Part shown: positions 17,581 to 43,863 of the stretch, one piece after another
How positions within the stretch are numbered: position 1 is the first letter of the stretch
Layout: every line of letters starts with the position of its first letter
Position numbers and translations under genes: made by a program
NCBI RefSeq assembly: GCF_029227855.1
Contig: NZ_CP074356.1
Source of the DNA: Escherichia coli
GTDB lineage: Bacteria; Pseudomonadota; Gammaproteobacteria; Enterobacterales; Enterobacteriaceae
DNA: 64,000 bases
Direction: 5' to 3' (one strand)
The notes under the pieces: generated by a model
The model's database searches: none
The model's input: the letters and a program-made list of their open reading frames with translations, nothing else
Told to the model about the DNA's origin: nothing

Positions 17581-18289
17581 TAAATATCCTCCGGCATAGC
17601 CGGAGGTTTTTCAAATGCGCCTATAAGGCTCTCTTACCAGCCGCGCCCTAACAGGCGCACACGATCTGACATTTGCATCCAACTTCGTTACTTACGGCCC
17701 GTAAACGGGCTGCCCGGATAGGGAATCGATAACTGCTCTCCCATTTTATCCTCTTCAAGCTGGTGCTTTGTGTAATCCTGTATCTTCGCCGTGTTCTTAC
17801 CCACTGTATCGACGTAGTACCCTCTGCACCAGAACTCCCTGTTCCTGTATTTGAATTTCAAATCACCAAACTGCTCGTAAAGCATCAGACTGCTTTTCCC
17901 TTTCAGATATCCCATAAACCCGGATACGCTCATTTTAGGCGGGATCTCCACAAGCATATGGATATGATCTGCACAGCATTCAGCTTCCAGAATCCGTACG
18001 CTTTTCCACTCACACAGCTTTCTCAAAATACTGCCTATTGCTCTACGCTTCTCTCTGTAGAACACCTGTCTTCGGTATTTTGGCGCAAAAACTATGTGAT
18101 ATTTACAGTTCCATCGGGTGTGCGCTAAGCTCTTTTCGTTCCCCATTGGGACCCCCTTTTGATTTCTTGTTTGACACTTGCAGTTGCCAGACCGCAAGGT
18201 GTTTTAACAAATCAAAAGGGGTTTTAATAACAGGCTCAAAGCTGAAAGCTTTCCGGAACCCCCAGCCTAGCTGGGGGTTTTCTGTGCAC
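17581..18289 (-). mobile_element. IS200-family insertion sequence (IS200/IS605 family), copy 1, ~709 bp
   Basis: Single Y1 (HUH) transposase gene; subterminal hairpins (cctccggc ata gccggagg at 17588..17606; aacccccagc cta gctgggggtt at 18257..18279); a stem-loop sequesters the tnpA RBS; boundaries set by comparison with copy 2 (ambiguous by about 2 nt at one end and a 6-nt A run at the other). Confidence 0.85.
17688..18146 (-). CDS. tnpA: IS200 TnpA, Y1 HUH transposase (152 aa from ATG 18146)
   Basis: HuH motif HIHMLVEIP and putative catalytic Tyr in ...IQDYTKHQ...; AGGGGG RBS 6 nt upstream of the ATG. Confidence 0.9.
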   Translation of the reverse strand: MGNEKSLAHTRWNCKYHIVFAPKYRRQVFYREKRRAIGSILRKLCEWKSVRILEAECCADHIHMLVEIPPKMSVSGFMGYLKGKSSLMLYEQFGDLKFKYRNREFWCRGYYVDTVGKNTAKIQDYTKHQLEEDKMGEQLSIPYPGSPFTGRK

Positions 18290-18312
18290 AAAAAAGCCGC
18301 CTGGCTGGCGGC
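18290..18312 (-). terminator. Intrinsic terminator of ydcH (gccgcc/ggcggc hairpin plus T6 on the minus strand); the T-tract directly abuts the IS200 end
   Basis: Seen directly. Confidence 0.5.
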
Positions 18313-18322
18313 TTAGGAAAGT

Positions 18323-18547
18323 TTACACCTCTTTGACGCTCTCCTGCTGCAGGATTTTGAGCATCTCATCTTTTAACTGTAGCTTTTGTTTTTTCATGCG
18401 GACCACTTCCGCATTGTACCCTCGACCGTCGGAACCTTCCTTTCTGGCAATTTCATGATCAAGTTTATTGTGTTTATCGAACAAGGACATAAAGCGAGGA
18501 TTTTCGTTTTTCAGACGGGATATTAAATCTCGATATTCTGGAAACAT
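18323..18547 (-). CDS. ydcH: DUF465-family small protein YdcH (74 aa from ATG 18547)
   Basis: ORF MFPEYRDLISRLKNENPRF... with AGGGAG RBS. Confidence 0.85.
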   Translation of the reverse strand: MFPEYRDLISRLKNENPRFMSLFDKHNKLDHEIARKEGSDGRGYNAEVVRMKKQKLQLKDEMLKILQQESVKEV

Positions 18548-18686
18548 ACGCACTCCCTGTTAGTGGCTGACAAGGTGTATCTGAAATACACACCATCAGA
18601 TTACTCATTTAACTTAGGGAAAAATGCGAGCGGGATCGTGTTTAACCAGACGGCACCTCCCGAAGAAGGTGCCGAAGAAAAAACGA

Positions 18687-42041: not shown

Positions 42042-42104
42042 ATGCACTCCATGCCATTAAAAAAGAAACAAAAGGGAAATGCATCTTTCCCTTTTGTATA
42101 TTCG

Positions 42105-42965
42105 TTATTCTCGCGATATACCATCCAACGTAGACAACACTTCCTCAGAAAGATGCAATTTTTCAGCAGCCATATTCTCCCGTAAATGCGCAACAGAAGA
42201 CGTCCCTGGGATCAGCAAAATATTCGGTGAACGTTGTAACAGCCACGCCAGCGCCACCTGCATGGGTGTTGCACCCAGGCTCGCAGCAACATCCGACAGC
42301 GTAGAGGATTGCAGCGGTGTAAAGCCCCCGAGCGGGAAGAACGGCACGTAAGCAATGCCATCGTGGGCCAAAGCATCAATCATTGCATCATCAGCACGGT
42401 GCGCGATGTTGTATTCGTTTTGCACACAGACAATTTCGGCAATCTTGCGCGCCTCTGCAACCTGCGTCGGTGTGACGTTGCTCAGGCCAATATGTTTTAC
42501 CAGGCCTTGTTGTTGCATCTCTGCCAGCACGGTCAGGCTGGCCTCAATCGATCCTTCCGCTGGGCCATGACCATCCCCCATCATAACGCGCAGGTTAACC
42601 ACATCCAGTACGTCCAGGCCGAGATTACGTAGATTATCGTGCACCGCTTTTTGCAACTCTGCCGGAGAACAGGCGGGCAACCAGGAAGCGTCCTCTCCAC
42701 GCCGCGCACCAATTTTAGTGACAATTGTCAGGTCGTCAGAGTAAGGATAAAGCGCTTCGCGGATAATCTGATTGGTGACGTGCGGACCATAAAAGTCGCT
42801 GGTATCAATGTGATTGACGCCCAATGCCAGCGCCTCGCGCAGTACAGTTATAGCGACGTGGCGATCTCTTGGGGGGCCAAAAACCCCAGGACCTGCCAGT
42901 TGCATCGCGCCATAACCAAGACGGTTAACGGATTTTGTACCGAGAGTAAATGTATTGCTGCTCAT
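42105..42965 (-). CDS. ydbC: Aldo-keto reductase family oxidoreductase YdbC (286 aa)
   Basis: AKR fold in the translation; length as in K-12. Confidence 0.9.
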   Translation of the reverse strand: MSSNTFTLGTKSVNRLGYGAMQLAGPGVFGPPRDRHVAITVLREALALGVNHIDTSDFYGPHVTNQIIREALYPYSDDLTIVTKIGARRGEDASWLPACSPAELQKAVHDNLRNLGLDVLDVVNLRVMMGDGHGPAEGSIEASLTVLAEMQQQGLVKHIGLSNVTPTQVAEARKIAEIVCVQNEYNIAHRADDAMIDALAHDGIAYVPFFPLGGFTPLQSSTLSDVAASLGATPMQVALAWLLQRSPNILLIPGTSSVAHLRENMAAEKLHLSEEVLSTLDGISRE

Positions 42966-43124
42966 CGCACCCTGCCCTGTAATAAAACGGATTGAGAAAA
43001 ATCAGTATAGAAACGAAAAGAGATAAATAATGCGAAGGCGTAAACAAGATTACTGGATGAGTTGCTCTATTGTCCTGAAAGACACCAAAACAAAACGCGT
43101 AAAGCGCCGCATTCGGCAATAAAA

Positions 43125-43833
43125 TAAATATCCTCCGGCATAGCCGGAGGTTTTTCAAATGCGCCTATAAGGCTCTCTTACCAGCCGCGCCCTAACAGGC
43201 GCACACGATCTGACATTTGCATCCAACTTCGTTACTTACGGCCCGTAAACGGGCTGCCCGGATAGGGAATCGATAACTGCTCTCCCATTTTATCCTCTTC
43301 AAGCTGGTGCTTTATGTAATCCTGTATCTTCGCCGTGTTCTTACCCACCGTATCGACGTAGTACCCTCTGCACCAGAACTCCCTGTTCCTGTATTTGAAT
43401 TTCAAATCACCAAACTGCTCGTAAAGCATCAGACTGCTTTTCCCTTTCAGATATCCCATAAAGCCGGATACGCTCATTTTGGGCGGGATCTCCACAAGCA
43501 TATGGATATGATCTGCACAGCATTCAGCTTCCAGAATCCGTACACTTTTCCACTCACACAGCTTTCTCAAAATACTGCCTATTGCTCTACGCTTCTCTCT
43601 GTAGAACACCTGTCTTCGGTATTTTGGCGCAAAAACTATGTGATATTTACAGTTCCATCGGGTGTGCGCTAAGCTCTTTTCGTTCCCCATTGGGACCCCC
43701 TTTTGATTTCTTGTTTGACACTTGCAGTTGCCAGACCGCAAGGTGTTTTAACAAATCAAAAGGGGTTTTAATAACTGGCTTAAAGCTGAAAGCTTTCCGG
43801 AACCCCCAGCCTAGCTGGGGGTTTTCTGTGCAC
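43125..43833 (-). mobile_element. IS200-family insertion sequence, copy 2, ~709 bp, same orientation as copy 1 and about 99% identical to it
   Basis: Collinear with copy 1 over the full length with about 7 substitutions noticed by eye; occupies the position where K-12 has ydbA. Confidence 0.85.
43232..43690 (-). CDS. tnpA: IS200 TnpA, Y1 HUH transposase (152 aa)
   Basis: Identical to the copy 1 TnpA except Ile instead of Thr after the putative catalytic Tyr (QDYIKHQ). Confidence 0.9.
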   Translation of the reverse strand: MGNEKSLAHTRWNCKYHIVFAPKYRRQVFYREKRRAIGSILRKLCEWKSVRILEAECCADHIHMLVEIPPKMSVSGFMGYLKGKSSLMLYEQFGDLKFKYRNREFWCRGYYVDTVGKNTAKIQDYIKHQLEEDKMGEQLSIPYPGSPFTGRK

Positions 43834-43863
43834 AAAAAACCGCAACCTGTATCAGCGTTGCGG
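43834..43863 (-). terminator. Intrinsic terminator of paaY (ccgcaac/gttgcgg hairpin plus T6 on the minus strand); the T-tract directly abuts the IS200 end
   Basis: Seen directly. Confidence 0.5.

Follow-up and report, generated by a model that had tools for sequence, protein, structure and literature searches.

The window analysed here, a stretch of 64,000 nucleotides from Escherichia coli (contig NZ_CP074356.1 of assembly GCF_029227855.1) that runs in the reverse orientation of K-12, carries two copies of a small insertion sequence (IS), both annotated in RefSeq as IS200C. Both are intact and collinear, lying on the minus strand with 25,544 bp between corresponding positions: copy 1 spans 17579..18289, with its left end at 18289 and its right end at 17579, and copy 2 spans 43123..43833, each being 711 bp in length. 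Copy 1 lies downstream of ydcH (18323..18547, minus strand), whose stop codon is 33 nt from the left end of the IS, and copy 2 lies downstream of paaY (43909..44499, minus strand), whose stop codon is 75 nt from the junction; both genes have the same orientation as tnpA, the transposase gene of the adjoining element. At both sites the left end of the IS directly follows a run of six T that is preceded by a hairpin, and a comparison across the IS200 group established that placement behind a terminator-like hairpin and T-run is a family-wide rule of this group. We consider it likely that the two copies represent independent insertions directed by a TTNTT motif in single-stranded DNA (ssDNA), with integration being efficient only near a stable hairpin.

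The first-pass annotation of the window had described two collinear copies on the same strand with about 99% identity, and so they proved to be: the 709-bp cores (17581-18289 versus 43125-43833), both on the minus strand, are 99.0% identical, and the 7 mismatches fall, in copy-1 numbering, at 17770, 17805, 17919, 17937, 18000, 18232 and 18237. The left ends had been placed correctly, whereas the right ends were 2 nt short and have been corrected to give the boundaries stated above. Identity between the copies spans 17579-18295, since on the plus strand the core of each is bordered by two A to the left and by six to the right. Over both stretches that we compared (1,701 and 2,401 bp), E. coli JNEC-KY178 (NZ_AP045174.1) is identical to the window.

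Examination of the termini revealed an element that begins with GTGCAC at the left and ends with ATATTTATT at the right, and in which terminal inverted repeats are absent and subterminal hairpins are present at both ends. Read on the minus strand, the left ends of both copies begin GTGCACAGAAAACCCCC, directly after TTTTTT. The right end takes in two T beyond the boundary first assigned (...ATATTTATT), which brings the element to 711 bp; the three copies of one Colibacter genome diverge exactly after the final TTTATT, and contigs broken at the IS stop exactly there too. In copy 1 the right-end subterminal hairpin (17588..17606, minus strand) has the form CCTCCGGC-TAT-GCCGGAGG, lies between GAAAAA on its 5' side and the 9-nt tail ATATTTATT, and folds as DNA with -10.0 kcal/mol (z -5.5), a structure that is kept across the clade. 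The left-end hairpin of the same copy (18257..18279, minus strand) reads AACCCCCAGC-TAG-GCTGGGGGTT, with GAAAA before it, and folds with -11.7 kcal/mol (z -4.0); this is the element's own terminator-like palindrome, IS nt 11-33, and a left-end terminator has been described at nt 12-34 of IS200 (PMC4513863). The corresponding hairpins of copy 2 lie at 43132..43150 (right end) and 43801..43823 (left end), both on the minus strand.

Each 711-bp element codes for a single open reading frame, tnpA (copy 1, 17688..18146; copy 2, 43232..43690; both minus strand), and lacks tnpB. Both TnpA proteins are intact Y1 HUH transposases of 152 aa that differ from each other by a single T/I substitution. They match the NCBIfam model NF033573 (transpos_IS200) with 144 bits for copy 1 and 148 bits for copy 2 against a cut-off of 55, as well as Pfam PF01797 (Y1_Tnp), and score weakly (31-32 bits, under the cut-off of 80) with the REP_Tyr_transpos model. 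The 5' untranslated region (UTR) of tnpA, with the art200 (STnc490) region, was recovered in copy 1 at 18156..18279 on the minus strand (Rfam RF01405, 145 bits, E 2.6e-31). With the Y1 transposase, the hairpin ends and the art200/STnc490 region all in place, the elements belong to the IS200 group of the IS200/IS605 family; the IS200-like identity proposed earlier is thus borne out by Pfam and NCBIfam family searches and by the RefSeq annotation.

We then compared the host sites with alleles that are free of the IS. The site occupied by copy 1 (18290..18314, minus strand) consists of a hairpin at 18296-18312, AAGCCGCC-AGCCA-GGCGGCTT, with an 8-bp stem, and the T6 run at 18290-18295; a terminator scan scored it as terminator-like and extended the hairpin to 18294-18314, and as ssDNA it folds with -10.5 kcal/mol (z -2.8). 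The site occupied by copy 2 (43834..43864, minus strand) is the distal one behind paaY, with a hairpin at 43839-43864, ACCGCAAC-(10-nt loop)-GTTGCGGT, likewise with an 8-bp stem, followed by T6 at 43834-43839; its ssDNA fold reaches -12.1 kcal/mol (z -5.1), and the scan missed it only through its loop limit of 8. Two hairpins trail paaY in succession, of which the first (43890-43910) overlaps the stop codon, and the IS sits behind the second. Both sites, a GC-rich hairpin with a T-run behind a co-oriented gene, are predicted intrinsic terminators. In the IS-free alleles L001-3 the ydcH-rimL region reads ...GGCGGC-TTTTTT-AACAAC... (plus strand GTTGTT-A6-GCCGCC), so that the insertion amounts to exactly 711 bp with hairpin and T6 unchanged. 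The IS-free paaY-pdxI alleles L015-17 read ...GTTGCGG-T6 or T7-ATTGCC, T7 being found in one allele, and the occupied allele has T6, the IS, and TT-ATTGCC, i.e. one to two T in excess (window 43119-43124). At guaA the empty site likewise reveals an exact 711-bp insertion, with no duplication apparent, and at uhpT, galU and fabF, too, the host hairpin and T-run are already there in the empty sites. The earlier observation that the T-run is flush with the tnpA-upstream end and has a host hairpin before it therefore stands, as the empty alleles L001-3 and L015-17 hold both hairpin and T-run.

The six T at the left-end junction are common to both copies, which might favour a longer IS that includes the hairpin and T-tract, or a copy 1 that is a recent segmental duplicate of copy 2. 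We regard the chance of either as negligible, since both are refuted by the empty-site alleles. Hairpin and T6 are present in the IS-free alleles, and the T-tract is therefore host DNA; moreover, the hairpin sequence differs at every site, and we rejected the longer element on these grounds. A comparison of the two window copies with nine other E. coli IS200C copies bears on the duplication. Over its 709-nt core, copy 2 is identical to the consensus of E. coli IS200C (haplotype A), whereas copy 1 displays five diagnostic single-nucleotide polymorphisms (SNPs; haplotype B, also found at guaA, galU, fabF and yccU) together with two private changes. The haplotypes differ at IS nt 53, 290, 353, 371 and 485 (window copies and loci L005-L014), and a single genome may hold both, as in OZ039874.1, where the galU and fabF copies are B and the uhpT, pheP and pepD-side copies are A. 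As the window copies carry different haplotypes, neither derives from the other, and judged from these SNPs they are independent insertions from different source lineages. A recent or segmental duplication was accordingly rejected: the five haplotype SNPs recur at other loci and in other genomes, and the flanks beyond the T-run are unrelated between the copies. The previous assessment that this was not a very recent duplication is thereby sharpened. Of 5,426 complete E. coli genomes, 30 have an IS at the copy-1 site and 66 have one at the copy-2 site.

To gauge how general this placement is, we assembled 58 distinct left-end flanks: the two window copies, nine distinct E. coli chromosomal sites gathered by exact-protein look-up, and the remainder from 80 loci in representative genomes (TnpA 66-94% identical; Vibrio, Edwardsiella, Budvicia, Erwinia, many Bacillota and other assemblies) for which at least 45 nt of upstream sequence could be obtained. 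Eleven of these flanks come from E. coli and the others from about 47 taxa. Wherever a left-end flank is available, the element starts with GT, and a conserved palindrome, AACC[C/A]C...GG[G/T]GGTT, follows about 10 nt on; each such left end is preceded by a GC-rich hairpin of site-specific sequence and a T-run, with a sole exception taken up below. The minimum free energy (MFE) of the 45 nt upstream has a median of -19.6 kcal/mol (n=58), and values of -12 kcal/mol or lower are reached by 91% of the IS flanks, as against 8-9% of T-run-matched controls and 17% of random 45-mers (Mann-Whitney p = 5e-34 for IS flanks versus T-run-matched controls). We used MFE relative to controls in place of an earlier detector of perfect stems, which found 39/59 and missed imperfect stems and large loops. 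Within the annotated first 50 kb of the window a strong hairpin accompanies 7 of the 82 intergenic T-runs (9%), and the two occupied sites are among these seven; were intergenic T-runs picked at random, the probability that both insertions fell on strong sites would be ~0.007, and the 53 of 58 flanks with a strong hairpin set against the 9% intergenic baseline yield a binomial p of ~1e-50. This excess over the T-run baseline indicates that a T-run on its own fails to account for the placement, and placement by chance was rejected. Sites checked apart from the 58 display the same junction of hairpin and T-run, namely all three of the Salmonella IS200F sites and the one E. coli plasmid site.

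Some sequences contributed nothing to the site rule. The TnpA variant of copy 1 occurs in a single short contig and yielded no extra sites, and the IS1541 protein variant of Yersinia (P0149) belongs to a copy truncated by another IS and is uninformative on the rule. In the corresponding Yersinia pestis loci (L106-L109), another IS, which carries an rve-domain transposase gene, has taken the place of the left end in the IS1541 copy to which the 144-aa TnpA variant belongs.

Alignment of 57 left-end flanks on the junction revealed a motif TTNTT|GT, with T at position -5 in 53/57, at -4 in 51/57 and at -2 in 56/57, and with position -3 free (T 39, C 7, A 7, G 4), so that TTNTT is present at about 50 of the 57 sites. 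Measured from the last G/C-paired base, the hairpin and the junction are 6 nt apart in 21 flanks, 7 nt in 11 and 5-9 nt in 47/57. The right end of the IS is conserved as GAAAAA-hairpin-AT(A/G)TTTATT, its T-rich tail of 9 nt closing with TTATT, a sequence in agreement with TTNTT; in nearly all loci GAAAA stands immediately 5' of the left-end hairpin. By analogy with IS608 and ISDra2, we infer that an A-rich guide of IS200 would pair with both the T-rich target and the right-end terminus. In those two elements a guide just 5' of the foot of each hairpin reads the cleavage site at either end as well as the target on the left flank (PMC3333891, PMC6006769). Our searches of the accessible literature did not recover the TTNTT motif, its distance of 6-7 nt from the hairpin, the agreement of the right end with the target, the shared GAAAA guide candidate, or a conservation of this rule that extends from Enterobacteria to Bacillota.

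Taken with these features, the reading that we favour would have the single-stranded circular IS integrate 3' of a TTNTT on an ssDNA target, as IS608 and ISDra2 do at their own targets. The motif, which also terminates the IS itself (...TTATT), would probably pair with the conserved GAAAA guide just 5' of the feet of the left-end and right-end hairpins, and integration would be efficient only where TTNTT lies ~5-9 nt (mode 6-7) 3' of a stable hairpin. In genomes, this arrangement corresponds to the T-tract of intrinsic terminators. There the hairpin probably either keeps the adjacent T-run accessible on the lagging-strand template or acts through its likeness to the geometry of the IS right end, with a hairpin and a T-rich tail. 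The outcome would be an upstream terminator left intact and an IS shielded from read-through transcription, in a nearly neutral site that would fit the known low activity of IS200. The first-pass annotation had linked the two junctions to structure-directed targeting of hairpins by Y1 transposases. That reading is in essence supported, but structure-directed targeting is not an established mode of these enzymes; IS608 and ISDra2 bind their own subterminal hairpins and target via a tetra- or pentanucleotide (PMC6006769, PMC3333891). A part for the host hairpin, whose association with the IS holds family-wide, would come on top of this.

The orientation of the sites with respect to replication provides a further line of evidence. 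The GC skew of the plus strand of the window is negative in 8/8 bins; hence the top strand of the IS (minus) is the G-rich strand, i.e. the lagging-strand template. In K-12, oriC lies near 3.92 Mb and dif near 1.59 Mb. The upstream genes that we mapped are prfH, pheP, yccU, fabF, kdsA, galU, paaY and ydcH on the K-12 plus strand at 0.25-1.50 Mb, and guaA (2.63 Mb) and uhpT (3.85 Mb) on the minus strand; by these coordinates, with oriC and dif placed from general knowledge, all ten mapped E. coli sites lie behind genes co-directional with replication, against ~55% expected (0.55^10 ~0.003). This bias agrees with the preference of IS200/IS605 family members for the lagging-strand template (PMC5027513, PMC3333891) and counts against a purely transcription-coupled capture, in which the T-run would be caught on the non-template strand in the open bubble as RNA polymerase pauses or terminates, and not at the fork. 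Several features would suit such a capture: the IS is always behind a gene of the same orientation, the T-run is on the non-template strand of that gene, and the junction coincides with the position of termination. It nevertheless predicts replication-co-directional genes at only about 55% of sites where 10/10 are seen, experiments on other members of the family have found them to use the lagging-strand template (PMC5027513, PMC3333891), and the bubble is filled by the polymerase; overall, we hold it to be quite improbable.

A different kind of explanation would dispense with targeting by the hairpin altogether: TnpA might insert at any single-stranded TTNTT or T-run, with only those copies behind terminators persisting, as they disrupt nothing there and are protected from read-through. 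All the sites studied here are fixed copies, IS200 transposition is very rare (PMC4513863) and leaves a long time for filtering, and a 2025-26 preprint reads the enrichment of terminators as limiting transposase expression and thus favouring persistence (10.1101/2025.07.22.666184). However, a strong hairpin is found at 9% of intergenic T-runs versus 91% of IS flanks, the junction is sharply peaked 6-7 nt from the foot of the hairpin, the paaY T-run appears to run on past the IS, the same rule is seen in unrelated hosts and on a plasmid, and neutrality alone does not predict the 10/10 bias for co-direction with replication. We therefore think it unlikely that such filtering is the whole explanation, though a less remote prospect than capture by transcription.

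Several observations weigh against TTNTT- and hairpin-directed insertion, or limit what can be drawn from the data in its favour. First, all the sites are survivors in assembled genomes; targeted insertion is what we infer from them, and selection against other insertions, after the event, could contribute. Second, the junction was set at the T|G step nearest the expected offset, which makes motif positions -1 and +1 circular. Third, there is hardly any variation in either the GAAAA guide or the TTNTT target, and covariation is consequently uninformative on their pairing. Fourth, the host hairpins are unrelated in sequence, with stems of 5-15 bp and loops of 3-10 nt, which makes a sequence-specific recognition of host hairpins by TnpA unlikely. 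Fifth, the occupied alleles at uhpT, galU and fabF (L006, L007 and L008) are one T over 711 bp when compared with K-12 (L103, L099 and L101, respectively), and the exact register of cleavage appears ambiguous within T-runs, with no fixed duplication; the extra T at these three sites and at paaY could reflect slippage of the cleavage register in T-runs or T-run polymorphism between strains. Sixth, the sole flank with neither T-run nor hairpin, that of Veillonella caviae (L068, ~95-110), reads ...TTTTGTCCTATA|AGCCGAAGAAAACC, and its left end may be truncated or rearranged. Finally, the replication-direction test comprises just the ten sites, with general-knowledge positions for the origin and terminus.

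A broader form of the proposal is that terminators serve the IS200 clade as a universal, host-independent dock, with the requirement for a hairpin residing in the chemistry and the T-run pairing with the GAAAA guide; we see the arguments for and against this as evenly balanced. The same even judgement attaches to its further element, that the transpososome would read any stable hairpin as the signal, provided that it lies on the lagging-strand template and has TTNTT ~6 nt 3' of its foot. If true, this would constitute a mode of target selection undescribed for IS608 or ISDra2; it would account for near-neutral, ancient elements conserved from Enterobacteria to Bacillota, and register slippage in T-runs would account for the one-T variation at junctions. 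In this genome the consequences are slight, with two annotated IS200C copies at near-neutral sites and both upstream terminators left intact. The placement rule itself is almost absolute (91% versus 9%), precise (TTNTT, 6-7 nt from the foot of the hairpin) and conserved across phyla. It supplies a concrete hypothesis on target and guide for the element that founded the IS200/IS605 family, offers an explanation for the terminator enrichment reported in the preprint, and allows exact prediction of IS200 boundaries and empty sites in annotation. Should reading of the hairpin prove to be part of the mechanism, a single-strand transposase would find natural 'safe-harbour' sites in terminators.

The left-end palindrome is itself unusually well conserved: IS nt 9-34 are 100% identical between E. 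coli IS200C and a Saccharibacteria-assigned contig (L066 548-573), and the palindrome is strongly conserved in Bacillota elements with TnpA only ~70% identical. This points to strong constraint or to horizontal transfer.

The direct repeats bracket a segment of ~24.8 kb from ydcH to pdxI/ydbC (18290..43122). That the copies are direct repeats was correctly noted in the first-pass annotation, but the segment is a recombination substrate only in theory: with a criterion of a record covering at least 80% of the query, we recovered neither a deletion junction (rimL flank joined to paaY flank) nor a tandem-duplication junction (pdxI flank joined to ydcH flank) in the 5,426 complete E. coli genomes. 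We also considered a composite transposon bounded by the copy-2 left end and the copy-1 right end, which are on the same strand, and rejected it as implausible for this family, for its excision would need ~26 kb of ssDNA at once.

On the far side of copy 1, rimL (17010..17549, minus strand) has its start codon 29 nt downstream of the right end of the IS, and in the stretch that adjoins it (window 17550-17606) the right-end hairpin was terminator-like on both strands by scan. Copy 1 may cut rimL off from upstream promoters and so alter its expression. Elsewhere, the IS200C insertion between uhpT and adeD (L006) is at a terminator shared with UhpU, a small RNA (sRNA) derived from the 3'UTR in K-12 (locus L103 3731-3996), and IS200 insertions may hence adjoin the 3' ends of sRNAs without destroying them. 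The large autotransporter gene ydbA/bigA, which separates paaY from pdxI (ydbC) in K-12 and many other strains, is absent from the window (42966-43908) and from the IS-free alleles L015-17. Within the bracketed segment, ynbD (34995-36302) is annotated as a frameshifted pseudogene.

The association of the element with terminators is already known in outline, and what we add is a mechanistic refinement put forward as a hypothesis. Terminator-like stem-loops were reportedly found by Odaert et al. in 1998 at 8 of 14 IS1541 sites, and are said to have been proposed there as hot spots. A search of the accessible literature for an explicit statement of terminator targeting by IS200 or IS1541 yielded only the 2025-26 preprint, in which a terminator-like sequence lies upstream of, and outside, the element in 40.2% of 20,314 IS200-family copies, with every other IS family at 7.1% or less (10.1101/2025.07.22.666184). 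IS200 of Salmonella, IS200C of E. coli and IS1541 of Yersinia are the same element of ~710 bp, with tnpA only and without terminal inverted repeats; they also have in common the left-end terminator hairpin, the 5'UTR stem-loop and the art200/STnc490 antisense RNA (PMC4513863), and the window copies do not differ from them in any essential respect.

The mechanistic models of the family, IS608 of H. pylori and ISDra2 of D. radiodurans, resemble the IS200 group in their Y1 HUH TnpA, in the subterminal hairpins of their ends, and in insertion 3' of a short motif at the left end, which in IS608 and ISDra2 proceeds without duplication. The target of IS608 is TTAC. That of ISDra2 is TTGAT (PMC2806898). 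These targets are bare motifs with no reported need for a neighbouring hairpin, and both elements carry tnpB; in the IS200 group, by contrast, the motif is TTNTT and is almost always located 5-9 nt 3' of a host hairpin. A parallel outside the family is provided by the group IIC (bacterial class C) introns, which insert downstream of the stem-loops of Rho-independent terminators or attC sites and likewise combine a short pairing motif with a generic hairpin (PMC7923331); they are, however, RNA retroelements that use reverse splicing, with an unrelated protein and chemistry. Extragenic palindromes (REPs) are also insertion targets for several IS (PMC3333891), and TnpA-REP (RAYT), a Y1 homologue, binds single-stranded REP hairpins with a 5' tetranucleotide. 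REPs constitute a specific family of repeated sequences, whereas the targets of IS200 are unrelated, site-specific terminator hairpins.

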